A model generated the notes under the pieces. It did not search any database. It was not told the DNA's origin and saw only the letters and a program-made list of their open reading frames with translations. A stretch of DNA of 52,424 bases from a virus (lineage: Duplodnaviria > Caudoviricetes): IMG/VR virus record IMGVR_UViG_3300013009_000061, positions 1 through 52,424 of that record; one strand, 5' to 3'. A program made the translations under genes and the position numbers. The stretch's first letter is position 1, and each line of letters starts with the position of its first letter. Of this stretch, positions 1 to 52,424 are shown piece by piece.

Positions 1-1704
1 CTATGACGCACGGACTGGATACGGCAGAGGATTGCATGAGGTGCTTGGCGGTGCTCGGCGAGCCCCAGCGGCTGCGGATTCTCCGGGCGTTGGCCGACGG
101 CGAGCAGACCGCGGGTGAGCTCTCCGAGCGCCTCGGCGTGCGGCAAAACACGCTTTCCCATCACATGAGACAGCTTCGCGAGCACGGGCTGGTGGAGGTT
201 CGCCTCCACCATGCATAACCCGAACTCGCAAGTTGCAGTCGAATTCGTCGGTTCCGTCGTCGAAAGTCAAGATGACGGAGTCGACGAATTCTTGTATGAC
301 AGCCTTCTTTGCCACGTCGTCTCCATGTAGGAGCTGGTACTTCTTTTCGCGGATCACAGCCTCAATCGCCGCGTCGTCCAGATGGTCTCGTTTTTTCATG
401 ACTTCGAGACGGACAAGCGCTTTTTCGATTTCATCCTTCCGGTCCTTAGCCTCATTGATGTACGACCAGACAAGTTCCTGATCTTTAATGCCTCTTAACG
501 AGTTCATCCAGGCCTGAATATCCTGATTAATTTCCGAGAGCTCGCGCCGCAGCACTTCTTCGTCTTGTTTCAATTGCGCGCGCTGCTCTGCATACAGCGC
601 TTGGATGTTCTTCACCATCATTTGAATGGACTCGTCTGTGAAATAGGTGTCAACCAAAAGTTTGATAATCGCATTCTCAATGTCAGACTTACGAATGCTC
701 GGAAGGCCACACTTCGCAGAACATGTGTAGTACTGATACTGACTTCCTTTGTTGGTATAGCTGTTGCCGTTACAACGAGCACCGCATTGGCCGCAGTACA
801 ACTTATCGCTCAACAGATACGTAGCATCGCCTTTGTAATAGCTCGGTTTGAATTTCCGTGTGGCCATGATCTGATTCACCCTCTCAAAGAGTTCACGGTC
901 AATGATGGGAGGAACTACACCCTCCACAACAACCTGCTCTTCTCTTGGTTTGAAATCATGATTATTCCGTGTTCCATCTTCTCGCTTTGAAGACCGTACG
1001 TCCCAAGTATAAATGCCGATGTATTTCTTGTTGCAGTGCCAACCGTCAAAACTATTGATGGTGAAAGGCCGTCCGCGTTGGGTACGGAAGCCGCGTTCAT
1101 TGAGCTCTGCAGCGATCTCCGACTTGTTTTTCCCCTCGGCAATACGGGTAAAGAAGATTCGGACGGCTTCTGCGGCACGTTCATCGATTTCCAAACGCTT
1201 GGTCTCTGGATTGACTCGATAGCCATAAGGTGGCCGTCCGCCTGTTGTCATGCCCTTTAGGGCGTTTTCCTTCAATCCTTTACGGCTTTCCCTTGCGAGG
1301 TTTTTGGAGTAGTACTCGGCCAAACCCTCTAATACTGATTCCAAAATAACACTTTCCGGTGAATCGTCCAAGCGCTCCAGGACGCTTTCAAGACGTACAC
1401 CGTTCCGCTTCAGAATGCGTTTGTAATACGCGCTGTCGTAACGATTGCGCGCAAAGCGATCTAATTTATGCACGACGACCACATCAAAGAGTCCTTTTGC
1501 ACTATCTTGGATCATCCGTTGAAAGTTCGGTCGATCATCGGTCGTCGCCGACCGTGCCTCGTCTGGGTAAACCCCAACTAGTTCGTAGCCCTTCTGTTTA
1601 CAGTACTCCTCGATCGCGCGCATCTGAGCGTCAATTGACTCTTCGCGTTGGTTATCGGAGCTATAGCGAGGATAGGCAACGGCCCGAATTTTCTTTTTAA
1701 CCAA
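1..1704 (-). CDS. Large serine recombinase (integrase)
   Basis: YPRYSS catalytic Ser motif, DRFARN, recombinase domain PYGY, Zn ribbon CGQCG...YYTC, coiled coil; TTG start with GAAGGTGA RBS. Confidence 0.95.
   Translation of the reverse strand: MVKKKIRAVAYPRYSSDNQREESIDAQMRAIEEYCKQKGYELVGVYPDEARSATTDDRPNFQRMIQDSAKGLFDVVVVHKLDRFARNRYDSAYYKRILKRNGVRLESVLERLDDSPESVILESVLEGLAEYYSKNLARESRKGLKENALKGMTTGGRPPYGYRVNPETKRLEIDERAAEAVRIFFTRIAEGKNKSEIAAELNERGFRTQRGRPFTINSFDGWHCNKKYIGIYTWDVRSSKREDGTRNNHDFKPREEQVVVEGVVPPIIDRELFERVNQIMATRKFKPSYYKGDATYLLSDKLYCGQCGARCNGNSYTNKGSQYQYYTCSAKCGLPSIRKSDIENAIIKLLVDTYFTDESIQMMVKNIQALYAEQRAQLKQDEEVLRRELSEINQDIQAWMNSLRGIKDQELVWSYINEAKDRKDEIEKALVRLEVMKKRDHLDDAAIEAVIREKKYQLLHGDDVAKKAVIQEFVDSVILTFDDGTDEFDCNLRVRVMHGGGEPPPARAREAVSCDGKACFAARRGARRAHPRSARRRPTPGESAAAGARRAPPSTSCNPLPYPVRAS
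3..218 (+). pseudogene. 5' fragment of host ArsR/SmtB-family HTH regulator, interrupted by prophage
   Basis: LAVLGEPQRLRILRAL...TAGELSERLGVRQNTLSHHMRQLREHGLVEVR is the ArsR winged-HTH signature; it breaks off in the wing at the inverted repeat and stops after LHHA. Confidence 0.85.
190..211. other. Putative attL core (dyad symmetry)
   Basis: Perfect 9-bp inverted repeat TGGTGGAGG-ttcg-CCTCCACCA exactly where ArsR similarity ends and integrase-like sequence begins. Confidence 0.7.
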
Positions 1705-40937: not shown

Positions 40938-42113
40938 ATGGCACATGTGGCCGTTTACGGCAACATGGTCGTCACCAAACAAGGCCAGGCGCTATATGCC
41001 AAAGTGCAAGCGGGTACCCAAATGCAGTTTACCCGGCTCCAAATTGGTAGCGGGCAACTCACGACGCAGCTGAGCAGTGCCCTAACCTCGGGGACGTCCT
41101 ACACTTCCATACCCGTACAGGCGCTCACATCTCCTGTCGCGAGTGGTCAGACGATCACAATCGGCACAGGTAGCACGACGCAAACAGTCACGGCAAGTGC
41201 CGCGGTGTCCATCGGAGCCACGAGCATCCCGGTTGCGTCATTTACTGCGAACGCGAACTATCCTGCGGGCACCACGGTGACGTTGGTTTCCGACCCGACC
41301 ACGCTCACGGGGTTGCTCAGTCCGATTGATTGGGTGCCAATTAACTCGATCTCGACAAACGGCAACACAGCAAATATCCTCGCTATCTACCAGAACACGA
41401 AACTCCAGCAACCTACGTACACGTGCGAGATCGGGCTATTCGCGCAAGACCCGCAGGCGGGTGAGATCCTATACGCCTACGCTAATGCTGGGGCTCAAGG
41501 GGACACCTTTCCGCCGTACTCAGCCGGGCCGTACTCGCGGCAGTTTCAGCTGGCGATTGCCATCGGGAACGCGACACAAGTGACGGCCAACGTCCCGACG
41601 GGTACCTGGATCCCGGTGTCACAGATGGGGGTACCCAATGGAGTAGCGACCCTCGATGCCACCGGCAATGTGCCGTTGTCACAGCTCGGAAACGTGCCAA
41701 AGCCGGGAACGGCATCATCAACAGCGTTGGGGCTTATTCAGTTACCACCGTCAGCCGGCACACCCACCAACCCCGTCGCCGTGTATCGCCCCGTCAGTGT
41801 CCGAGACATGACCCTCACGTCCACATCAGCCACGACTGTACTCAGCTACACGCCAGCCGCATCAGGACAGTTTAAGGTGAGCGGCTATCTACGTGTGGCC
41901 AACGCGGCGACCGGCGTGACAGTGACGCTGACGTACACCAGTCCATCCGGTTCACAGACCATTACGCTTGTGCCGCAGTACACCTTGGCGGTCGGTGACT
42001 ACACCATAACAGCTACGACTTTTGAGGCTACAACAAGTAGCGCCATCACACTTACAGCTACAGCAGGCACAGCGAACAACGTGACAATCTCCGCAGTACT
42101 GGAGGCGGTGTGA
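40938..42113 (+). CDS. Tail fiber/baseplate-anchored protein
   Basis: VVTKQGQAL, FTRLQIGSG, EIGLFAQDP..GEILYAY, NGVATLDATG. Confidence 0.8.
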   Translation: MAHVAVYGNMVVTKQGQALYAKVQAGTQMQFTRLQIGSGQLTTQLSSALTSGTSYTSIPVQALTSPVASGQTITIGTGSTTQTVTASAAVSIGATSIPVASFTANANYPAGTTVTLVSDPTTLTGLLSPIDWVPINSISTNGNTANILAIYQNTKLQQPTYTCEIGLFAQDPQAGEILYAYANAGAQGDTFPPYSAGPYSRQFQLAIAIGNATQVTANVPTGTWIPVSQMGVPNGVATLDATGNVPLSQLGNVPKPGTASSTALGLIQLPPSAGTPTNPVAVYRPVSVRDMTLTSTSATTVLSYTPAASGQFKVSGYLRVANAATGVTVTLTYTSPSGSQTITLVPQYTLAVGDYTITATTFEATTSSAITLTATAGTANNVTISAVLEAV

Positions 42114-42116
42114 TAC

Positions 42117-43001
42117 ATGAGTCAAGCGATTGTACCTTCATCTGCAGTTCCGTTTGGCGCGCCCGCAATCACAGCAGGCGGTATCAACGGACTTGGTAGT
42201 TTACGATTCGTGGGCACCACAAACGGAGGCCCACCGACGAGCGGGACGTACAACACGAGGGATGTGGTGTTGGATCTCAACACGCTGCTCCTGTGGATCT
42301 GTACCTCCGGCGGCACCCCTGGCACGTGGACGGGTTTGAGTTACTTGCGAACGGATAGCGGCGCGCCGAATCCGCAGATGGTGCAACAGCCGGTAGTATT
42401 TCAATCGAATGCAAACCAATCAAGTCAGCAACCGATTCTTGCCAAATCCCCTGACGGGAGCTATATCGCTCTTGCTCCTAGTGTAACAGTAGGAAGCTGG
42501 AATGCCCTCGTTCAAGCCGGGGATGAAGTGCTGGTATTCGTTAGCAAAGGCAATCCTACAAATCCATCCTTTTTGTCTATTGTGCCTTGGGCAAGCAAAA
42601 CCGCTGGAATCCGAATCGGAAGCGATGGAACAGTCAAAAGTGCCAACAACACTCTCGATGACGGTTCTGGTGGCATCGTAGCGGCTGGAGCTATGAAAGC
42701 GCAAGGTGCTTATTTTGTGCTAGAAGCGCTGAGCGGAGGGTACAAAATCCAGTCAGGCGCCGCTAATATCTCAAATGTATCGCCGAACACAGTATACACG
42801 ACTACCATCACGTTTCCTGTACCCTTTTCTTCCGCCCCGTATGTCTACGTCACATCCAATACGAACACAGTAAACAATAGCTATACGGTCTATTTATCTG
42901 CCTACGAAAATACCGCCACTCAATTCACGGTTGAAGGCCTAATCTCAGGCACTGCAAACCCGGGTACGATTAGTTTCAGTTGGATAGCGATTGGAAATTG
43001 A
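42117..43001 (+). CDS. Tail fiber/receptor-binding protein
   Basis: GPPTSGTY...WICTSGGTPGTW; C-terminal IQSG...TITFPVPFS..P...FSWIAIGN (H-type lectin/gp53-like). Confidence 0.75.
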   Translation: MSQAIVPSSAVPFGAPAITAGGINGLGSLRFVGTTNGGPPTSGTYNTRDVVLDLNTLLLWICTSGGTPGTWTGLSYLRTDSGAPNPQMVQQPVVFQSNANQSSQQPILAKSPDGSYIALAPSVTVGSWNALVQAGDEVLVFVSKGNPTNPSFLSIVPWASKTAGIRIGSDGTVKSANNTLDDGSGGIVAAGAMKAQGAYFVLEALSGGYKIQSGAANISNVSPNTVYTTTITFPVPFSSAPYVYVTSNTNTVNNSYTVYLSAYENTATQFTVEGLISGTANPGTISFSWIAIGN

Positions 43002-43015
43002 AGCGAGGTGAAACC

Positions 43016-43876
43016 ATGAATTATTTCTTTCTGTATACAGAGACCACAGGTCAAATCTATGGTGCTCCATATCTCGGTACAGCAGAAGAGTGGACCAACA
43101 TCCCCGAAGGCTGTGGGGTTATCGGCCCGATTGACCAATCCGATTCGACAGCGACGGATGCTTACCAACACCCAGAACGATATCTCGTCCAAAACGGCGA
43201 ACTGGTGCTCCAGCCGTACATCACAATCACATCGTCAGAGTCAAGCGGCTCCTACAACATCACCGCAACCCTCAACAACCCACCCTCCACGCCTCCGTCC
43301 AGCGTCACGTTCACGATTGGCTCATGGACGCAGACTTCAACGCTTGCCAACAACCAGGCCAGCATCACGGTGCAGATGCACCCATCACTCTCATCGTATG
43401 CGGTGCCTGTGTCCGTTTCTGCGACGGGATGTGTAGGGGCGTCGGCGACGATTGGTGGGACACAACCACTCCCCATCGGTATCCAGGTCTTCACTCCATC
43501 TGGTTCGAGTACGCCGATGGTCGCTCCTGTCGGCCCTGGGTCAAAGAGTTTCCTTGCGGCGTATTACTCGCTTTCCGCAGGATCGCTTGAAACGTATCTC
43601 GCCGACATCGGAACGGTCATCAGTCTGCTGACCGACGCCGTGTTCAATGTGCTGTTCCCGGCGGTAAATCCGACGTTGAACGCCAATCAGCAGAACGCCT
43701 ACAACGATATCAAGGCCAACGCATTGCCGAATCTGTACACAACGCTCAACAACGCCTATCCGTCCGGCGGAACGAAACAATTGCAGTACGCAGATTATCT
43801 CGCTGGCCTATCGAGCACGTTCAAGGCATACGAGAGTTACGCACAAGACCTTGAGACGATTCCTGGACTTGAGTGA
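43016..43876 (+). CDS. Tail-fiber-associated protein
   Basis: GAGGTGA RBS; follows fiber; Ig-like Ser/Thr-rich middle. Confidence 0.55.
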   Translation: MNYFFLYTETTGQIYGAPYLGTAEEWTNIPEGCGVIGPIDQSDSTATDAYQHPERYLVQNGELVLQPYITITSSESSGSYNITATLNNPPSTPPSSVTFTIGSWTQTSTLANNQASITVQMHPSLSSYAVPVSVSATGCVGASATIGGTQPLPIGIQVFTPSGSSTPMVAPVGPGSKSFLAAYYSLSAGSLETYLADIGTVISLLTDAVFNVLFPAVNPTLNANQQNAYNDIKANALPNLYTTLNNAYPSGGTKQLQYADYLAGLSSTFKAYESYAQDLETIPGLE

Positions 43877-43895
43877 CCACATCTTCTGTTTCCTC

Positions 43896-43920
43896 AGCGC
43901 TCCTTCGGGGGCGCTTTTTT
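43896..43920 (+). terminator. Intrinsic terminator
   Basis: AGCGCTCC-ttcg-GGGGCGCT-TTTTT. Confidence 0.7.
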
Positions 43921-43943
43921 CATGCCTGAAAGGAGTGTCCATC

Positions 43944-44690
43944 ATGCCGAAGTACCGCTACCTCCAGACGGCCACTGTCCCGTACTATCAGCCGCACGGA
44001 AACGGAAAAGTGGAAGTGGACCTGCGGCAATATTTTGGGCCTATCTACAACCAGGGCGACCTAGGCGCATGCTCCGCCTTTGCCGCGACCGCTTGGTACG
44101 CCGCGTGGCGCGTGAAGCACGGTTATTCGTGGGTCGAGTACAGCGAATTGGCTCAGTATTACGAGGAACGCAAACTGGAGGGCACCGTCTTCCAGGACTC
44201 CGGCGCGACCATCTGGGACGCTGTCCAGGTGCTCGCCACATACGGCGTTATGCCCGAGCAGGATGACCCGTACAATCCCGCGGACTTCACCAATCCGCCG
44301 CCTGAGCAGGACTTCATCCCTGGATCGCAATTGCCGCTCAACCTCGTCCGTCGCCTTCCGCTCTCTCGCCTCGTGGACTACGCCATGGACGCGCTCAGCA
44401 ACGACATGCCCATTCTGTTCGGCGCAGCGGTGTTCTCCGAGCTTGAGTCGCAAGAAGTGGCGGAGACAGGCTATCTCTCCATGCCTGCGCCGTATGAACA
44501 GCCCATCGGCGGTCACGCGATGGTGGCCGTCGGCATGGACGTCGGCAAGCGCCTGTTCCTCATCCGCAACTCGTGGGGCGCTGACTGGGGCATCGGCGGC
44601 TACTTCTGGATGCCATTTGAGTACTGGCAGGACTTCGTGAGCGAGGCATACGTCATCGACGATTTGGTAGAGGACAAGAAGGTGGCCTAA
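43944..44690 (+). CDS. Papain-family (C1) cysteine peptidase
   Basis: VDLR, NQGDLGACSAF (Gln/Cys), GGHAM (His), IRNSWG (Asn), WGIGGY. Confidence 0.9.
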   Translation: MPKYRYLQTATVPYYQPHGNGKVEVDLRQYFGPIYNQGDLGACSAFAATAWYAAWRVKHGYSWVEYSELAQYYEERKLEGTVFQDSGATIWDAVQVLATYGVMPEQDDPYNPADFTNPPPEQDFIPGSQLPLNLVRRLPLSRLVDYAMDALSNDMPILFGAAVFSELESQEVAETGYLSMPAPYEQPIGGHAMVAVGMDVGKRLFLIRNSWGADWGIGGYFWMPFEYWQDFVSEAYVIDDLVEDKKVA

Positions 44691-45187
44691 TGCTGGAGCC
44701 AGGCGACCTCATCTTTGTACGCGGGCGTTGGTGGGACCCGATTGCAGACGCCATCAAACTGGGGGAAGTCCTCATCAACCATGAAGAGAAGCTGCCGCTC
44801 GCGCGTCTCTACACCCACGTCGCAGTCTATCTCGGCGGCAACAACATCGCGGAGGCGCAGGGCCTTCGCGTATCAGGGACGGGGCGAATCGGTGCATATG
44901 CAGGCGAGTACGACATCGGCCATGTGGTCGGCATGACGTATGACCAGCGCCAGCAGTTTCTTGCCGCACTCCAGCGCGAGAATGGCTTTCCTTACGACTG
45001 GGTGGGCATCTTCTGGCTGGCGGTCAAGGCTATCACGGGCTACAGCAAGAAGTACGAGGAGCACAAGACGCGGTACTGCTCGACCTATGTGGGATGGGCG
45101 CTCAGGCAAGCAGGCATTGTGGTGGACGATGAGACACCTTCCACACTGGCGCTTGACCCGCGTATTCACATCGAGATTGTTTGCTGA
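44690..45187 (+). CDS. Permuted papain-like NlpC/P60 enzyme (YiiX/YebB-like)
   Basis: LEPGDLIF, YTHVAVYLG (His first), PYDW, RYCSTYV (Cys last). Confidence 0.82.
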   Translation: MLEPGDLIFVRGRWWDPIADAIKLGEVLINHEEKLPLARLYTHVAVYLGGNNIAEAQGLRVSGTGRIGAYAGEYDIGHVVGMTYDQRQQFLAALQRENGFPYDWVGIFWLAVKAITGYSKKYEEHKTRYCSTYVGWALRQAGIVVDDETPSTLALDPRIHIEIVC

Positions 45188-45201
45188 GAGGGGCGGTTGA
45201 A

Positions 45202-45504
45202 GTGCATGAGAACCACTCCCCTGATACCCGGCTAGCGGTGGCGGCCAACGACATCGCGTGGATCAAACAATCCCTGAAGGAGATCAAGGAGAAACAAGAG
45301 GAACTATCGGACCAGATACGCGCGCAGAACGACCGAGCGTCGGAGTTCGCCACAAAATCCGACATCGAACAGCTTAGCAAGGACGTCCAAGACCTGCAAC
45401 GATGGCGTTCATGGCTGACGGGGGCCTATCTTGTCGGCGCAGGCATCATTGGGGCGCTATTTGAGTACGGACGTCAGTGGTTGACAGGAGGTGGTGGCAA
45501 ATGA
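45202..45504 (+). CDS. Coiled-coil protein with C-terminal TM (XhlA/holin-like)
   Basis: Heptad-rich N-part, WLTGAYLVGAGIIGALF TM; lysis region; start uncertain. Confidence 0.6.
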   Translation: MHENHSPDTRLAVAANDIAWIKQSLKEIKEKQEELSDQIRAQNDRASEFATKSDIEQLSKDVQDLQRWRSWLTGAYLVGAGIIGALFEYGRQWLTGGGGK

Positions 45505-45860
45505 TACGGCGGATGAATGCGTGGCTAGCTGAACGCATGGCGAACATGCTTTCGAGTATGTGGCTCTTTTGGGGCTTGACCATCCTCATTTGGGCGACAG
45601 TCATCTTGCAGCGCCCTAGCGGGCCGCAAGGGTGGATATTGTTTCTCGTTTCCGTGTTCTTTCAGGGCGTATCTCTGCCAGTTCTGGCTTTCGTGAGTAA
45701 CATCCAAGGGGATAGAACAGAAAAACTGTTGCGTGAAACCCACGACGCTGTCATGTCCGAGCTTACGGAACTTAGGCGCATGCATGAGGAACAGGCGACG
45801 GAACTTGCGGAACTAAGGGCCGTCCATCGCGAACTAGGGAGGCGTTCGCATGACCGCTAA
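45501..45860 (+). CDS. Small two-TM membrane protein (DUF1003-like)
   Basis: NAWLA...LSSMWLFW, FFQGVSLPVL, C-terminal coiled coil. Confidence 0.6.
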   Translation: MIRRMNAWLAERMANMLSSMWLFWGLTILIWATVILQRPSGPQGWILFLVSVFFQGVSLPVLAFVSNIQGDRTEKLLRETHDAVMSELTELRRMHEEQATELAELRAVHRELGRRSHDR

Positions 45861-46413
45861 CCGCGTCGTGGAGGAGCATGAGGTCACGGAGAAGGTCACG
45901 GAATACGTCGTGTTCCCGGAGCACTCGCAAAGGACGGAAAGCGAACTGTTCCGCACGAACAAGCATAAGCTTGTCCACGAAATGAACCTCCCGTGCTTCA
46001 AGTGTGCCATGAAAGCATGGCCGGACAAACCGCCGCCGGAAGCGTACCATAACCGCGAAGTCCACCACTGGCTTGTCGAATGGGCCGTGTGGAACGCCGC
46101 TGATCCAGCGAAGGTGCAACGCCTGCTGGATAGCGGCTTTTTTGATCCCTACGGCTTCTCGGCACATATGAAGGGACAACCCTTCGATTCCCCAGACGAC
46201 ATCCGAAACCTCATCGTGCTCTGCGAACGCCATCACCGAGACGGTCATATCGGCGTCCACCACTCGACGGCTCCTGAGTGGTTGTCTGACCTCGTGGCGA
46301 AAGACGGCGTAGACATTCTGCTCACGGATGAGGAGTGGCGACTGCTCGCAAGCGGGCAAGCCGAACTCGGAGACGACGGCAAGCTCATCCCGAAGGAGGC
46401 CAATGATGAATAA
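45850..46413 (+). CDS. Hypothetical protein with HNH-like motif
   Basis: CFKC...EVHH...NLIVLCERHHR..GVHH. Confidence 0.55.
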   Translation: MTANRVVEEHEVTEKVTEYVVFPEHSQRTESELFRTNKHKLVHEMNLPCFKCAMKAWPDKPPPEAYHNREVHHWLVEWAVWNAADPAKVQRLLDSGFFDPYGFSAHMKGQPFDSPDDIRNLIVLCERHHRDGHIGVHHSTAPEWLSDLVAKDGVDILLTDEEWRLLASGQAELGDDGKLIPKEANDE

Positions 46414-47452
46414 GCATCTTACGCGTGCGCTAGCCGCGATATCGCTCGCTGGCGCTCTTGGTTTTCCGGCTGTGGCACATGCGCAGAACGTATCATACCC
46501 AACCATCAAAGCAACGGTTAACGGCGTGAGCGTGCCTGCGATTGTCGTTCGAAACACCACTTACGTCAGCACCAGAGCCCTTAGTGTTGCGCATACGGCC
46601 TACGAACAGGTGAACAGCAGCACGTATGACGTGCTCGGATGGAACGAGTCGGTGGTCACATACAACGGCCAATCTTACATCCCGTGGGCGTGTCTAGCGC
46701 CGAGCGTGAAGGCGACAAAGATACCTGGCGGGTGGGCCTTCGCGGCAGATCAAGACTATCAACTCAAGCTTGTCTATGATCCGCAAGCCTTTGCAGGCAA
46801 CTGGGATATGGTCAGAATCTACACGCTCGACGGGAATCGGCCAGCCCCAGGCCAAGCATTCGACATGAAAATCTACTATGGGGGAACGAACGGCGCGCCT
46901 GACGAGATCATAGACAAAACATCGCAAGATGGCGCATATGAGTGGGGCTTCAACGAGGTCAAGCCTACGTCCGATAGCATCGTGCTGACGTGGACAGACC
47001 CCGAAGGAATCAAGCATGTTGGCACCGCCACAGTTACGTTCGTGTCGCAGACCCCTTCTTCAACACCTATCCCTCCAGACGACCACCTCGTCGCGCAGAC
47101 CGCTATCAGCGTGATCAACGACGAAGTGCTATTCGATGCGCAAGTGAACGGTGTGGATATGACATTCCAGCTTGATACTGGCGCTATGATGCCGCTCATT
47201 TCTGCCAACGATGCAAAGAAACTCAACCTGCCCAATCTAGGGACAATTGAGGTTGCGGGCGTCGGCGGGACAAACCAAGCCTATCTCAGTCAAATGAATG
47301 TTACCATCGGGGGCGTCACGTTCGAGAACGTCCCCTGCATCGTTGACCCATCGTATCAGTATAACTCGCTATTCGGCTATTCGTTTTTCGCGGACCATCA
47401 GTATGACCTGCTTGTGTCTCTTAAACACCACACGCTCAGCATTCTCGACTAA
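46403..47452 (+). CDS. Secreted protein with C-terminal retropepsin-like aspartic protease
   Basis: Signal peptide ending AHA; FQLDTGA catalytic motif, GVGG flap, SLFGYSFF. Confidence 0.8.
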   Translation: MMNKHLTRALAAISLAGALGFPAVAHAQNVSYPTIKATVNGVSVPAIVVRNTTYVSTRALSVAHTAYEQVNSSTYDVLGWNESVVTYNGQSYIPWACLAPSVKATKIPGGWAFAADQDYQLKLVYDPQAFAGNWDMVRIYTLDGNRPAPGQAFDMKIYYGGTNGAPDEIIDKTSQDGAYEWGFNEVKPTSDSIVLTWTDPEGIKHVGTATVTFVSQTPSSTPIPPDDHLVAQTAISVINDEVLFDAQVNGVDMTFQLDTGAMMPLISANDAKKLNLPNLGTIEVAGVGGTNQAYLSQMNVTIGGVTFENVPCIVDPSYQYNSLFGYSFFADHQYDLLVSLKHHTLSILD

Positions 47453-47471
47453 TTCTGGGGGATGAGGGACC

Positions 47472-48437
47472 ATGCCTACGGTGATAGCAAAGGCTATTGA
47501 TTGCACGGTCAAACTCACGCCCCAACAAGCACAGGCTATTGCGCAGGCGGGATATAGCGTTGTGATGCGGTATCTCGGTAACTGGGCGAAGTCTCTCACC
47601 GCCGATGAGGTGGCTGCTATCCGTGCGAGCGGCCTGAAAGTCGGCCTCATCTGGGAGAGTGACCCGACATATGTGGGCTACTTTACGCCGTCACAGGCGG
47701 CGCATGACGCAGTTGCAGCGATGGCTTCTGCGGAAGCGCTCGGCGCGCCGAAGGGAACGGCTATCGCCTTCACGGTCGATTACGACGCCGCCCTCAATGA
47801 CATGGAGGCCATCATCGCGTACTTCGGCGTCCTCTTGAGCAAAGTCACGGACTACAAGGTGGGCGCGTATGGCGATGTGATTGTCATCGATGCGCTATAC
47901 AACACCTACGGCAACAAGCTCTGGTATTGGCAGACGAGCGCATGGAGCAACGGGCAGACGAACGCGAACAATGCCATGTACCAGCACACCTACGATGCCA
48001 TGGTCGGCGGCGTGCAGGTGGACGTGAGTGACGTATACGCGGACCCGGGCTTCTGGGAACCGTCTTCGACACCCGCACCTAGCCCGTCGCCGTCGCCATC
48101 ACCGAACAACGGAGGTGACATCGTGACAATTCTTCAACTCGGCAGCACGGGCGACGCCGTGAAGCAGTTGCAAGAGGACTTGAACAAAGTCCTAGGTATC
48201 CATCTCGCCGTGGATGGTATCTTCGGACCGGCCACGCAAGCGGCGGTCAAGTCGTTCCAATTGCAGCACGGTCTCACGGTGGACGGCATCTACGGCCCTC
48301 AGACCGCACAGGCCATGTACGAGGCACTGTTGGCCCTCGCGAACAAGGGAAGTACCATCACCGTGGACAAGGCCAAGGTGCAGGCGCTTGTGACGGCGCT
48401 TGAGTCGGCACTGAACGCGGCGAAGGCGCTGCTCTAA
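47472..48437 (+). CDS. Endolysin: DUF1906/GH25-like glycoside hydrolase + peptidoglycan-binding domain
   Basis: VMRYL, IAFTVDYD, GAYG, WQTSAWS; PS linker; LQLGSTGDAVKQLQ...DGIFGPAT...DGIYGPQT. Confidence 0.9.
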   Translation: MPTVIAKAIDCTVKLTPQQAQAIAQAGYSVVMRYLGNWAKSLTADEVAAIRASGLKVGLIWESDPTYVGYFTPSQAAHDAVAAMASAEALGAPKGTAIAFTVDYDAALNDMEAIIAYFGVLLSKVTDYKVGAYGDVIVIDALYNTYGNKLWYWQTSAWSNGQTNANNAMYQHTYDAMVGGVQVDVSDVYADPGFWEPSSTPAPSPSPSPSPNNGGDIVTILQLGSTGDAVKQLQEDLNKVLGIHLAVDGIFGPATQAAVKSFQLQHGLTVDGIYGPQTAQAMYEALLALANKGSTITVDKAKVQALVTALESALNAAKALL

Positions 48438-48518
48438 TCAAATGCCATATCCGTCATGGTTTAGTCACGGCCTCGCGCAGACCAGCGTGGGGCCTCATCT
48501 TTTGAGGGAGGGATTCTG

Positions 48519-48908
48519 ATGGCTGCACCTATCACGAGCGTGGAGTTGCAGATCCTTGAGGACGTGCTGAGCGCGTTTGGTCTTGCGTTTGGCGGAGCGG
48601 TCACGTACTTGACGACCAAGGTCGTGCCGAAGTACATCCATAGCAAGACCGCGCAGAACGCCATAAGCGGCCTCGCTTCCATTGCTGAGAGCGTCGTGAC
48701 GCAGTTCAACCAGACGATTGTGAGCGACGCCAAGGCGAACGGCGTCTGGAACGCGACACTAGCCGCGAAGGTGAAGCAGGACGCGGTGCAGGCCGTGTTG
48801 TCGCAGGGCGCGAATTTGGCAAAGCTCGCGGAGAAAGTCGTCGGGGATGTGCCAGAGCTCGTCTCGACGCTCATTGAGCAGGCAGTGGCGAAGGAGAAGA
48901 CAAAGTGA
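48519..48908 (+). CDS. Holin (LL-H-like)
   Basis: N-terminal TM, follows endolysin, IEQAV C-terminus. Confidence 0.65.
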   Translation: MAAPITSVELQILEDVLSAFGLAFGGAVTYLTTKVVPKYIHSKTAQNAISGLASIAESVVTQFNQTIVSDAKANGVWNATLAAKVKQDAVQAVLSQGANLAKLAEKVVGDVPELVSTLIEQAVAKEKTK

Positions 48909-49029
48909 TATAGTGGTGCTAAGAGAGCCTGCCACGCGAGCCATGAGGCAGCGGACCAGGGCAGGCCAGTTCGTGTGGAGATTCAAGGCCCGATGCGAAT
49001 GAAGCACCGGGCCAAAAATTTTTTCTCGG

Positions 49030-49074
49030 AAACGTCGACAAAACTATTGAATTCGTCGACGAAACGTGTATACT
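49030..49074 (+). promoter_or_regulatory. Sigma-A-like promoter with palindromic operators heading accessory operon
   Basis: TTGAAT-16bp-TATACT; palindrome TTCGTCGACGAA (49052-49063) in spacer and related AACGTCGACA at ~49031. Confidence 0.6.
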
Positions 49075-49132
49075 GAGAATCAGAAGGAACAAACAAGGCC
49101 CCGACGGACGGGGCGATGAGGAGGGTAAGGAA

Positions 49133-49735
49133 ATGAAGGCGTACCGCATCCAACCTGCCGACCGCGACGTGAATCTCCTTCTCCAGCCCGAGCACCAAGT
49201 CTCTCGGTGCTGGACGTACACCGAGCGCCCGTGCCCGGAGTGCAACGGGGAAGGCCGCCGGTGGCACTACGGGGAGGAGATCGTATGCGAGGCTTGCGGC
49301 GGCGATGGTTGGGTCGAAGATGTACGCCACGGTGTCAGCGCCTGCCTCACGTTGGACGACCTCAGGGCGTATTTCCTCTCGCGGGGCGCCGACCTGGAGG
49401 ACACCGTCCTCGTCGAAATGGAAGCCGAGTGGGCCGAGGATGAGGACTTCGACGTTGACGCCGGCGCGGTGCTCGTCATCCCGCGAGAGATCGTGCGGGT
49501 GACGCCCATCGAGGAGACGGGGCTGTTCCGTTTCTTGGGGCATTCGCTCGACGAAATCCTCGCAGACGTCGAGGAGCGGTTCGCCGACCAAATCCGCGAG
49601 GCCGACGATGAGCGCTGGACGCTGGCTCAAATCCTTGAGTCCGAGTGGGACTTGAGCGAGGAGCAGGGGCAGTTCCAGTACCGTTCGGAGTGGACCAGCA
49701 AGGTCGAGGCATTCCTCGACCGAATTCTTGGATGA
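49133..49735 (+). CDS. Acidic hypothetical protein with DnaJ-type zinc finger
   Basis: CPECNGEG...CEACGGDG; GAGGAGG RBS. Confidence 0.7.
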   Translation: MKAYRIQPADRDVNLLLQPEHQVSRCWTYTERPCPECNGEGRRWHYGEEIVCEACGGDGWVEDVRHGVSACLTLDDLRAYFLSRGADLEDTVLVEMEAEWAEDEDFDVDAGAVLVIPREIVRVTPIEETGLFRFLGHSLDEILADVEERFADQIREADDERWTLAQILESEWDLSEEQGQFQYRSEWTSKVEAFLDRILG

Positions 49736-49742
49736 GGAGGAA

Positions 49743-49979
49743 ATGAAAATGTTGGAGCAAAAGGCGTATTGGTTGGGCTATAAGGCGGCAGAACCTTATC
49801 TTGCCGCCAAACCGGGTACATCACTGCTCTCGCGCCGTGAGGCGCATGCGAAAGGTTTGGAAAAGCTGAAATTTTTAATTTCTGGCTTGAATGACAGTGA
49901 CGCGTTTTTCATGCACCGTGAGTTCGAGCGCGGTTTTCGAGACCGCGAACACGGCGGCCCCGGGAAAAGCGGCATCTAA
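49743..49979 (+). CDS. Small hypothetical protein
   Basis: GAGGAGG RBS. Confidence 0.55.
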   Translation: MKMLEQKAYWLGYKAAEPYLAAKPGTSLLSRREAHAKGLEKLKFLISGLNDSDAFFMHREFERGFRDREHGGPGKSGI

Positions 49980-50091
49980 CCCAGCCGCTAAGCTCGTTGC
50001 CCGTAGCTAGGGCGCCCGACTCGCTCGGGCTCCCCATGGTGCGGACAACGCACACAAAAGCCGCCTTTGGGCGGCAAAGGAGGAAAGTTTC

Positions 50092-50379
50092 ATGATCATC
50101 ACTGTAACACTTCAGGCCGGGCTGCTCCAGCCCGAGCAGTTGCCGGATCTCATCGCCGCCATGCCTTCCGCGGGAGGCACGGAGGGCATCATCCTGAGCG
50201 GGCGCCTGCCTGTGTGGGCGTTCGCGACGCTGGTGCACCATTTCCATCCCAGGCCGTGGGTTGCTACTTACGAGCCAAGGCTTGGACTTGGCGTCGTGGT
50301 AGCCTCCCATACTCCAGCAGTGGTGGTCGGGCAGACGGTCCCGACCGACGGACATGAGACTCTGGAGGTGTTGTTCTGA
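50092..50379 (+). CDS. csx3: Csx3/Crn3-family cyclic oligoadenylate ring nuclease homolog
   Basis: GIILSGRLPVWAFATLVHHFHPRPWVATYEPRLGLGVVVASH matches the Csx3 pattern (SGRxPxW...H.HP..WVA.Y(D/E)PRLG.VVV.SH); 95 aa; AGGAGG RBS. Confidence 0.8.
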   Translation: MIITVTLQAGLLQPEQLPDLIAAMPSAGGTEGIILSGRLPVWAFATLVHHFHPRPWVATYEPRLGLGVVVASHTPAVVVGQTVPTDGHETLEVLF

Positions 50380-51170
50380 TGAACGAGCATCTAACTCAAT
50401 TTTGCACAGCCTGGGCTCTCGCCCGTGCTTACTGGCACGGGTGGGCAGCCGACTACGGCACGTCCTTCACGGACATGGTAGAGGACGTCCATCTCGCCGC
50501 CTCTGCGGAGGAGGCGTGCGAGCGCATCCGCGCTCGTTACAAAGCACTACCGTCGTTTCCTGGCCAAATCGCGGGCATCGAGTGCCCGGAGCTGGCGGGA
50601 GATAACATCGTCCACACGACGGGCACTGGGCGTCTGTCGTGGGTTGTCCGCCCTGACGGCTCCGTATCGTTCACCGTCTCCACGCCGTATGGCGTCGTCG
50701 CGCAGGCCGAGGTGTCCGCGCCCGAGGTGGCGCGTACGCGCTACGGCGAGCCTTACATCCGCCGCACAGCCAATATGTGGGCTCGCGACGCTCGTCCGCG
50801 CCACGTCATGGCCTTAAACAAGGCCATAAGTGTGCTCGCCACGATACCAGAGTGCCCCGATGGAGACGTGCTGGAGTTGGCACGCTTCCTGCAGTCTCCG
50901 TTCGGTGAGTGCGAGGGCCTGCGTGTCGAGGTGGACCTGGACGGCTCCAAGTCCACGATGGGTCCTGGAGTCTGGTTCGAGGGTAGCTGGCCCACTGCGG
51001 CCAGCGGCGTGTTCGTGCCGCTGTTCACGCCGTTCACGCAACGTGACCTCGGGCGGGCGTTTGCCCACCTCGCCCGTACGGTGGATGCCGAGTATGCCTC
51101 CCTCGCCCGCGCCTTGGGCGAGAATGTGCCAGACTATATGCTGTTCCGCCCCGAGCCTGTCAGCGAGTAA
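50379..51170 (+). CDS. Hypothetical protein
   Basis: Translationally coupled (TGATG) to the csx3-like gene. Confidence 0.65.
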   Translation: MNEHLTQFCTAWALARAYWHGWAADYGTSFTDMVEDVHLAASAEEACERIRARYKALPSFPGQIAGIECPELAGDNIVHTTGTGRLSWVVRPDGSVSFTVSTPYGVVAQAEVSAPEVARTRYGEPYIRRTANMWARDARPRHVMALNKAISVLATIPECPDGDVLELARFLQSPFGECEGLRVEVDLDGSKSTMGPGVWFEGSWPTAASGVFVPLFTPFTQRDLGRAFAHLARTVDAEYASLARALGENVPDYMLFRPEPVSE

Positions 51171-51213
51171 GCTGACGGGCTAGGGGCGTTTTTGTGTTTT
51201 GAGGAGGAAATGT

Positions 51214-51684
51214 ATGGAAGACAAAGACATCACCTGCCTGGGCGGCACACTTCGCCGCGTCGGCCCAAACCAATGGGAGTGGATAGACGGCACACCGGAG
51301 CCGCGCGTCCGTGACATGCTCCGCGCTGACCTCGCGCCGAACTTTCGCGTCATCGGTGGACGTAACGGCGATGTGGAAATCCCACGGAACTGGCGCGACT
51401 ACGTGGACGACCCGGCTATCGAGATGGCCATCGAATGGCTCATCAAGGAGCACGGTCGTCCATCCGACATCTTCGGCGAAGGTATCGCGGAGGCACTTGG
51501 GGACCATCGTGTCTTCGTGCGCGGGTATCGTGTGCCCGTGCAGAAGTGGGACGAGGTCATGATGGTCCCCACGGGAGTGGAGTGGGACTTGGAGCACGAG
51601 GAGGACATCTTGCAGCGAGCAGAGATGCTTAGAAGGAAGATGGAACGAGAGGAGGCGGAGAATGCCGAGACCCAGGAAGAGTAG
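51214..51684 (+). CDS. Acidic hypothetical protein
   Basis: GAGGAGG RBS, ATG 51214. Confidence 0.65.
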   Translation: MEDKDITCLGGTLRRVGPNQWEWIDGTPEPRVRDMLRADLAPNFRVIGGRNGDVEIPRNWRDYVDDPAIEMAIEWLIKEHGRPSDIFGEGIAEALGDHRVFVRGYRVPVQKWDEVMMVPTGVEWDLEHEEDILQRAEMLRRKMEREEAENAETQEE

Positions 51685-52051
51685 CGGATACCGTATCACG
51701 TGGAGGGTGACGGAAGACCTTGAGCCGTTTATCCAGCGGTTTGTGGAAGCCTTCTGCGAAGTCCCGGCGGCGATGGATACCATCGTGCGCCGGTATCGTC
51801 GTTCGCGAGAGGTCGGGGAAGAACGTCTCCGCGAACTGTTTTCGCCCGCGGAACTCAACTGGCTGATGCAGACCCTCGTGCCGCCAACCGAAGGTACAGG
51901 CATTGAATATATCACAGCCCAAGTATCGGAGGCAGTGCGACTCGGACAAACGGATGGCGTCGATGGTGAATCCATCCTAAGCAGAATCGTCCACTTGTCA
52001 GACATCGAACTGTTCGCGCTCGATGAGCGGAGGCGCATGTATGCCGAGTAA
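51662..52051 (+). CDS. Hypothetical protein, possible DNA-binding regulator
   Basis: MPRPRKS..YRITWRVTEDL resembles a ribbon-helix-helix start; last gene before terminator. Confidence 0.55.
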   Translation: MPRPRKSSGYRITWRVTEDLEPFIQRFVEAFCEVPAAMDTIVRRYRRSREVGEERLRELFSPAELNWLMQTLVPPTEGTGIEYITAQVSEAVRLGQTDGVDGESILSRIVHLSDIELFALDERRRMYAE

Positions 52052-52087
52052 AAGGCCCTGCTCACCACGTCGGTGGGCAGGGCTTTT
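52051..52087 (+). terminator. Intrinsic (possibly bidirectional) terminator
   Basis: AAAGGCCCTGCTCACC-acgtc-GGTGGGCAGGGCTTTT. Confidence 0.7.
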
Positions 52088-52169
52088 GCGCACAATCCGA
52101 TAAGCCCAGACATATGTCGATCTCGATTTTCATACACTCTTAAAAAGTCTTGTGTCGGGGGAAAAACTT

Positions 52170-52424
52170 ATGGACTTTTGGCGCGCAAAGCACTACGATG
52201 AGGGCAAAGACCCGAGAAAAAAGAAGGTGATCCGCATGGCATCCCCTATCGATACCCACGTTCACACCGAACCGATTGAGCGCTATCGCATTCGTCATTC
52301 CGAAATTGAGGCTTGGAAGCGTACTTCTGGCCTTTTGACCGGCAAGATCCCGTATGGGGATGATGGCGAGACTCTGAGCGAGTATATTCATCGGAAGCGC
52401 GCCGAAGAGAGGGAGAGAGGCTAA
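52170..52424 (+). CDS. Hypothetical protein
   Basis: GGGGG RBS-like tract before ATG 52170; ends at TAA at window edge. Confidence 0.5.
   Translation: MDFWRAKHYDEGKDPRKKKVIRMASPIDTHVHTEPIERYRIRHSEIEAWKRTSGLLTGKIPYGDDGETLSEYIHRKRAEERERG

Follow-up and report, generated by a model that had tools for sequence, protein, structure and literature searches.

The 52,424-nt stretch of DNA analysed here, referred to throughout as the window and comprising the entire IMG/VR virus record IMGVR_UViG_3300013009_000061, carries a stand-alone csx3/crn3 gene whose 95-aa product is almost certainly a true, complete and canonical member of the Crn3/Csx3 ring nuclease family. The gene very probably lies within a prophage, where it forms part of an accessory operon located after the lysis genes. 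The presence of a complete Csx3/Crn3 copy on a virus suggests that the virus uses it to silence the alarm molecule of type III CRISPR immunity, cyclic tetra-adenylate (cA4).

The assignment to the family is carried by matches to curated hidden Markov models (HMMs). The Pfam profile PF09620 (Cas_csx3) scores 79.5 bits against a cut-off of 21 (E 1.7e-22), with residues 9-83 of the protein spanning positions 5-77 of the 78 in the profile, and the NCBIfam equivalog TIGR02579, 'CRISPR-associated ring nuclease Crn3/Csx3', scores 71 bits against a cut-off of 55.4. Six Csx3 models of PADLOC also match, the top score being 81.2 bits, and phmmer aligns the protein with five Archaeoglobus fulgidus Csx3 (AfCsx3) sequences from the PDB at E values of 2e-11 to 6e-10. 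PF09620 is the sole Pfam match, which places the protein outside DUF1874, the family of AcrIII-1 and Crn2. The initial annotation of this DNA had recognized a Csx3 signature in an open reading frame (ORF) of this length and called for an HMM search as a check; the coordinates of the ORF (Table 1) and both curated profiles agree with it.

The predicted structure leads to the same family. The AlphaFold2 model, built with 57 homologues as input, has a predicted local distance difference test (pLDDT) value of 95.5 and a predicted template modelling (pTM) score of 0.86, and all 13 Foldseek matches in the PDB at E ≤ 0.001 are AfCsx3 chains, with query-normalized template modelling scores (TMq) of 0.65-0.72. 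The best of these, 6vjg (E 3.5e-6, TMq 0.72), superposes with a root-mean-square deviation of 1.9 Å over 81 columns at 34% identity, so that the superposition on A. fulgidus Csx3 proposed as a further check yields a fit to the AfCsx3 fold. Strong fold matches in the PDB are confined to Csx3, and the earlier statement that AcrIII-1 has a different fold is correct. Among the predicted viral protein structures of BFVD, no match to the model is found at E ≤ 0.001. When two copies of the protein are modelled as a complex, the prediction scores 0.73 and the best control 0.00, contacts agree between runs to 98% or more, and pLDDT for the partner does not fall below 93; the mark set for a dimer is reached by 20 of 30 proteins solved as same-chain pairs and by 1 of 23 solved as single chains. 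Phage Csx3 may accordingly form a predicted homodimer, a result that covers the dimer only and that may reflect likeness to AfCsx3, because AfCsx3 dimers have already been solved.

Residues were mapped by phmmer alignment to AfCsx3, where chain numbering minus 6 gives the numbering of the published study (PMC7371418). The AfCsx3 residues in contact with cA4, S44, G45, R46, I49 and R71, correspond to S36, G37, R38, V41 and R63 of the phage protein, and the conserved histidines of the 'H60 face', H57, H60 and H80, have their counterparts in H49, H52 and H73; S36, G37, R38, V41, H49, H52, R63 and H73 are invariant in all 57 close homologues. The sole difference among the residues shown to matter is at the catalytic aspartate, D69, which is E61 in the phage protein. 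For AfCsx3, the H60A and D69A mutants are reported as inactive and R71A and H80A as much reduced (PMC7371418). The motif YEPRL, which the initial annotation had read in place of the usual YDPRL, is present at Y60, E61, P62, R63 and L64. Its proposed meaning, an altered nuclease or a cA4 sponge, finds no support: the close homologues hold D at position 61 in 40 cases, E in 16 and G in one, and the other key residues are invariant. By the frequency of E (16/57), YEPRL appears to be an ordinary natural variant of the subfamily rather than a pointer to a sponge.

The gene stands apart from any CRISPR-cas context in the window. Six-frame searches of the 52-kb record with PF03787, the profile of repeat-associated mysterious proteins (RAMPs), and with the Cas10 palm profile PF22335 give no matches, no family of direct repeats of at least 20 nt within 150 nt is present, and Tandem Repeats Finder (TRF) reports nothing array-like, in keeping with the earlier observation that the window holds neither a cas operon nor a CRISPR array. 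Within the record, csx3 is thus not linked to any type III CRISPR-cas locus, which is a matter of context and not of biochemistry.

The window is an IMG/VR 'provirus' cut at gene borders, and its CheckV estimate is 100% complete. It encodes a repressor, an anti-repressor, replication proteins, terminase, portal, capsid, sheath and baseplate, and the phage is temperate and myovirus-like; by its portal, its nearest relatives among isolated phages are Agathobaculum phages, at 47% identity. The left end contains a fragment of the host gene arsR, recognized by an HTH_5 match of 59.6 bits, in which the residues encoded by positions 3-209 are 96% identical to ArsR of Alicyclobacillus sendaiensis. Identities to other intact ArsR proteins are 89% for A. 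acidocaldarius, 86% for A. mali and 74% for A. vulcanalis, the full-length homologues measuring 100-112 aa. The fragment marks the left prophage border and identifies the host, a hot-spring bacterium, as an Alicyclobacillus near A. sendaiensis. The C-terminal 45 residues of ArsR, encoded by the 3′ part of the gene (codons for ...RHPRDERFTFYRL...), are without a counterpart in the window, where the best tblastn match (E 0.064) falls in an unrelated place. As the arsR 3′ part is absent, the right attachment site (attR) is to be sought to the right of 52424, with csx3 inside the insertion, and relative to the intact arsR of the four Alicyclobacillus species the DNA from about 215 to 52424 reads as inserted. 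The initial annotation had placed csx3 in an integrated phage and had noted that an attR upstream of 49100 would make it a host gene; the missing arsR 3′ part speaks for the former. An attR directly after the holin, suggested by the wing-like end 'GQFVWRFKA' of an ORF at 48847-49002, was considered and rejected, as intact Alicyclobacillus ArsR proteins end quite differently and their C-terminal 45 residues are unmatched in the window.

A related 47,254-bp contig (L055/L056) carries an integrase 97% identical to that of the window, and its integrase-side end lies within a few bases of the arsR junction. The integrase ORF of L056 (G010 44271-47254) ends in a TAA stop formed by the last bases of that record, and the integrase ORF of the window runs about 65 codons further into arsR antisense DNA. 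That the ORF reads on where the relative's stops indicates that integration alters the C-terminus of the integrase. The other end of the related contig lies 85 nt after its holin gene, and the window holds no copy of these 85 nt. Contigs from two hot-spring metagenome runs of two studies carry the region without differences, one of them covering 41043-51328 unbroken and one from the second study bridging 48474-49051. To the right of 52424, metagenome contigs continue for 4.8 kb and 1.07 kb; the contigs contain no joints over the region and do not reveal attR, and their loose ends look technical. Since the record may itself derive from one of the runs, they provide weak independent support. A look for RNA runs with this stretch came back empty, which is a blank and no evidence on expression.

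By homology to characterized Crn3 enzymes, phage Csx3 probably cleaves cA4, and on balance we lean towards a role in which the phage uses this activity to blunt the cA4 signalling of type III CRISPR. Csx3 dimers would stack head-to-tail around cA4 and, with Mn2+, cut it into linear di-adenylates. Produced by phage or prophage under the promoter and probable operator of its operon, the enzyme would remove the cA4 made by type III Cas10 upon sensing phage RNA, and effectors with CARF domains such as Csx1 and Csm6 would stay off once cA4 is removed. The net effect would be that of an anti-type III CRISPR ring nuclease, an analogue of AcrIII-1 with the Crn3 fold that would benefit the phage in a host possessing a cA4-signalling system. 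Degradation of cA4 by Crn3 in vitro is reported to be about as fast as by AcrIII-1 (PMC8284326).

The main alternative to this role, though an unlikely one, is that the same enzyme serves as a damper in the lysogenic phase, keeping host spacers that match prophage transcripts from triggering cA4-dependent dormancy or death; its function would then be one of tolerance or lysogenic conversion instead of lytic-phase anti-CRISPR. With a sigma-70-like promoter and a terminator to itself, the operon is located outside the late/lysis unit and sits at the prophage end, the place where lysogenic-conversion genes are usually found. The palindromic operator, which suggests that the operon is repressed in some state, speaks against a damper. 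In favour of damping, cellular Crn3 is described as an off-switch of moderate in vivo strength (PMC8284326).

An origin of the csx3 operon from the host chromosome or a separate island, with the right border of the provirus record predicted too far out, is improbable on the evidence from the borders and from base composition. In favour of such an origin, three related IMG/VR proviruses, with endolysins 80-86% identical to that of the window, share DNA similarity up to ~48,890, exactly the holin end, and none beyond, and two records stop about 90 bp after the holin. At 0.61, the GC content of the operon is also nearer to the 0.66 of the arsR fragment than to the 0.57 averaged over the phage, and attR is not within the window. 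Against a host or island origin, the arsR 3′ part that is required after attR is absent from the whole window, as is the right-arm sequence of the relative, and no second integrase occurs in 49-52.4 kb. The GC content at third codon positions (GC3) of csx3 is 0.73, within the 0.67-0.80 range of the phage structural and lysis genes, and the GC content of the phage early region reaches 0.62.

It is similarly improbable that phage Csx3 binds cA4 without useful cutting, as a sponge or as a sensor akin to the Csx3-type domain of the TIR effector Cat1. The replacement of D69 by E61 and the position of cA4-bound Cat1 filaments at Foldseek ranks 14-15 (E 0.015-0.03) would fit such a role, and the Cat1 sensor domain is assigned to the Csx3 family in a 2026 preprint (10.64898/2026.10.26.761840). 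The three conserved histidines and R63 are nevertheless kept, E is a common variant in a family that passes the equivalog model, and no effector domain is fused to the phage protein. Furthermore, the large cyclic oligoadenylate (cOA) output of type III systems has been argued to make sponging ineffective (PMC13148439). A function as an Mn-dependent 3′ deadenylase acting on RNA and not on cA4, after an early report of AfCsx3 as a poly(A)-tail exoribonuclease (as cited in PMC7371418 and PMC8284326), is highly improbable, as the family was later re-assigned as cA4-specific ring nucleases and the RNA in the crystal occupies the cA4 site (PMC7371418, PMC8284326).

Several observations weigh against cA4 blunting by a phage-borne Csx3. 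With attR outside the window, a second element, inserted in tandem, could be what carries the cargo. In the host genus, an A. acidocaldarius strain is described only as having '5 Cas systems', their types not being given in that description (PMC12243458). The change from D69 to E61 is conservative, yet it concerns a residue that matters in AfCsx3. None of the PHROG profiles matches phage Csx3, and PF09620 matches in none of the three related provirus records; the absence of the operon together with Csx3 from all three marks it as dispensable. A conserved P-loop ATPase gene is adjacent or fused to csx3 in 36 of the 51 relatives' loci examined (44 metagenome, 6 genome and 1 viral), and no such ATPase partner is present anywhere in the window. 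Should Csx3 depend on this partner, the phage copy may act in another way.

Table 1. Coordinates of csx3, its operon and the prophage features discussed in the text (positions in the window)
Feature	Position	Strand	Description
Large serine integrase	1..1704	-	ORF continues across the left attachment site (attL) into arsR antisense DNA
Host arsR, 5′ part	3..215	+	Residues 1-69 of the 111-aa ArsR; attL junction ~210-216
Lysis genes	47472..48908	+	Endolysin 47472-48437, holin-like 48519-48908; last block common to related proviruses
Operon promoter	49033..49074	+	TTGAAT 49047-49052, 16 nt, TATACT 49069-49074
First operon gene, 200 aa	49133..49735	+	DnaJ/anti-TRAP-like CxxCxGxG zinc-ribbon motif; all matches below curated cut-offs
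Small ORF	49728..49979	+	83 aa (TTG 49728) or 76 aa (ATG 49749); no family match
Shine-Dalgarno AAGGAGG	50077..50083	+	Strong; 8 nt 5′ of the csx3 ATG, read from the sequence
csx3/crn3	50092..50379	+	95 aa, stand-alone ring-nuclease homologue; ATG 50092, stop TGA 50377-50379
263-aa gene	50379..51170	+	Start ATG overlaps the csx3 stop TGA by one base, the A (TGATG)
ORF of 161 or 156 aa	51199..51684	+	161 aa (TTG 51199) or 156 aa (ATG 51214); no family match
Last operon gene, 129 aa	51662..52051	+	No family match
Terminator	52048..52092	+	Hairpin then UUUUG; -30.7 kcal/mol, z -5.2; 0/200 shuffles fold as well

The accessory operon follows the endolysin and holin genes, and its promoter leads six co-directional ORFs, of which csx3 is the third, to a strong terminator at the end (Table 1), an arrangement that matches the promoter-led operon described at the outset. 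A palindrome, TTCGTCGACGAA, at 49052-49063 overlaps the promoter, and a second CGTCGAC half-site is located at 49033-49044, 20 nt upstream; the two together are a probable operator. The 12-mer GAATTCGTCGAC occurs exactly twice in the window, at 280-291 on the minus strand in the 3′ end of the integrase gene and at 49049-49060 on the plus strand in the operator. With up to one mismatch allowed, GAATTCGTCGAC has four matches where 0.4 are expected, a number that none of 100 shuffles reaches, and its copies may be sites of a shared regulator. The gene for the 200-aa zinc-ribbon protein holds a 36-nt tandem repeat at 49543-49614 (2.0 copies, 77% matches). A GC hairpin, GCCGCCTTTGGGCGGC, lies at 50060-50075, just 5′ of the csx3 ribosome-binding site, and scores as a terminator on the minus strand only. 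For the 112-nt leader 5′ of csx3, folding is not significantly stronger than in shuffled sequences (z -1.8). No Rfam match at E ≤ 1 is found across 48850-52424, and none of the other five operon proteins scores above threshold in Pfam, NCBIfam, PHROGs or PADLOC. Of these proteins, the last, of 129 aa, is conjectured to be a possible regulator, and the 263-aa gene is translationally coupled to csx3 as read from their overlapping stop and start codons.

The csx3 operon is lineage-specific, variable cargo. In a related provirus (L054 11500-16676), the cargo behind the holin gene is of quite another kind: a GNAT-like gene and, on the minus strand, three genes whose products have 194, 79 and 205 aa. 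Within this phage group, the position following the lysis genes thus looks like a hot spot for cargo. In the survey of csx3 in phage contexts that the initial annotation had recommended, a tblastn search of Csx3 against 50,697 GenBank phage records finds none at E ≤ 0.01, a set that very near records may fall outside of, and pattern-limited scans of IMG/VR recover one other contig (L001, 6,979 bp, 55% identity), on which csx3 and a P-loop ATPase gene adjoin terminase genes. A survey of 28,114 phage genomes lists AcrIII-1 in 36, Csx20 in 4 and Csx16 in 2, and its main text names no Crn3 (PMC12409355); in the parts of the literature available to our search, no report of a phage-encoded Crn3 was found. 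The particulars of the present copy are that it is canonical, that its host genus is known and that its borders are arguable.

The protein encoded by the coupled 263-aa gene belongs to an unnamed family. An exhaustive HMMER search finds 86 cluster representatives at E ≤ 1e-3 and only two at E ≤ 1e-10, at 69% and 47% identity, the 69% cluster including the A. sendaiensis hypothetical protein WP_304459600.1, which is encoded on a 3,192-bp contig. The part shared by the family is the N-terminal ~150 residues (domain ~1-155) with the conserved motif HTTGTGRLxW; H20 is invariant, and W22, P70, H79, T81, G84, R85, W88, R102, P103, R141 and H142 are nearly so. This domain is modelled confidently (pLDDT > 90 for residues ~1-150). 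The protein has no Foldseek match in the PDB at E ≤ 0.001, no Pfam, PHROG or PADLOC match and no usable Atlas match, and a single-protein scan of IMG/VR finds none. One of 61 family members scanned, the 345-aa metagenomic protein P0113, is fused to a PF09652 (Cas_VVA1548) domain, which we take to be the Csx16 family; P0113 itself is not found in IMG/VR. A Csx3 domain is present in none of the 86 members, and HMM and phmmer searches show no Csx3 or Csx16-like neighbour at the three viral loci of the family. Csx16 is listed as an active ring nuclease (PMC12409355). As the link between the family and ring nucleases rests on two cases, it is a lead and not a finding. It is doubtful that the 263-aa protein and Csx3 act together as a bipartite anti-signalling module, in which the 263-aa family would be dedicated to partnering ring nucleases of mobile elements. 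In such a module, the 263-aa protein might block an effector, or it might bind or finish off the linear products or cyclic nucleotides of other kinds.

The protein search that supplied the 57 Csx3 homologues returns identities of 43-72% and none from NCBI. Among the 51 loci of relatives, the ATPase partner has ~170-270 aa with the motif GPPKAGKS...PDxEGQW (e.g., L001 6442-6977 and L010 4499-5307), and L001 and L010 are phage-like contigs in which the csx3-ATPase pair is located beside terminase genes. The other operon proteins of the window are found in none of the 51 loci. A tally of 287 ORFs of at least 97 aa within 5 kb of csx3 in 50 loci, from which 18 shorter ORFs were dropped, to which locus L047 contributed no ORFs and which gives totals and not per-locus calls, includes few cas genes in Pfam: RAMPs 7, Cas6 2, Csm4 2, Csx1 2, Cas10 1 and Csm2 1. 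Mobile-element neighbours comprise the type IV secretion system (T4SS) coupling protein (2), single-stranded DNA-binding protein (SSB; 2), terminase (1), family B polymerases, YopX and an integrase domain, and most of the 287 ORFs have no Pfam assignment. The closest relative with readable gene context (L028, 66% identity) lies in a type III locus with Csx7, a TIGR03986 RAMP and Csx14; it was considered as a link to the host and set aside, as its source is an Armatimonadetes metagenome-assembled genome (MAG) and not Alicyclobacillus. At locus L013, csx3 adjoins a VirD4-like gene. The initial annotation had proposed that the phage co-opted a host off-switch; the nearest relatives with context belong to unrelated organisms and mobile elements, namely the Armatimonadetes MAG, archaeal MAGs, a phage-like contig and conjugative elements, and not to Alicyclobacillus. 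These mixed neighbourhoods indicate that phages, conjugative elements and type III loci exchange this subfamily, and the phage copy has shed the ATPase. The closest protein, P0002 (72% identity, 95 aa, D at position 61), is found on 192 Logan contigs. In a Csx3 tree built by a quick method from 52 rows and 106 columns, the window copy pairs with P0002 with a Shimodaira-Hasegawa-like approximate likelihood ratio test (SH-aLRT) value of 86, and the two join L004, L009/L012 and the phage-like L001/L010 in a loose placement (92, not starred); support is too weak to name a donor lineage.

Among known systems, the phage protein is closest in kind to A. fulgidus Crn3/Csx3 (AF_1864; PDB 3WZG, 3WZH, 3WZI, 6VJG and 6YUD) and Methanosarcina mazei Csx3, whose family it shares by curated HMM cut-offs. 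It has the fold, length class and cA4-contact and histidine residues of AfCsx3, its dimer being a prediction, and differs in being prophage-encoded, in having no cas genes or array within 52 kb and in carrying Glu for D69. AcrIII-1/Crn2 (DUF1874) is likewise a small, virus-encoded, cA4-destroying enzyme, the role proposed here for phage Csx3, whereas its fold is unrelated and its activity metal-independent; Crn3 depends on Mn2+ and on an active site made by a dimer of dimers. Among sequenced phages, AcrIII-1 is the ring nuclease commonly found according to a survey (PMC12409355), and phage Csx3 would be its functional analogue at most. The nearest relatives of the phage protein, at 40-66% identity, belong to the Csx3-AAA and AAA-Csx3 modules (PADLOC 'Csx3-AAA' and 'C3a67'), from which it differs in having no ATPase in the window and in its coupling to an unrelated 263-aa protein. 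Phage Csx16 and Csx20 (PMC12409355) and the viral SAVED protein AcrIII-2 (PMC12751052) are also reported as cellular off-switch families on viruses, and they are different protein families.

The viral ring nucleases reported in phages are AcrIII-1, AcrIII-2, Csx16 and Csx20 (PMC12409355, PMC13148439). Such enzymes belong to a small set of known means of overcoming type III CRISPR, and a canonical prophage Crn3, if true, would be a third cellular off-switch family recruited by viruses. The copy described here is a good test case, as it passes a strict family model and belongs to a cultivable host genus, and its thermophile source makes it likely that the protein is stable. As a Crn3 parted from its usual ATPase, it would also serve as a natural experiment on the role of that ATPase.

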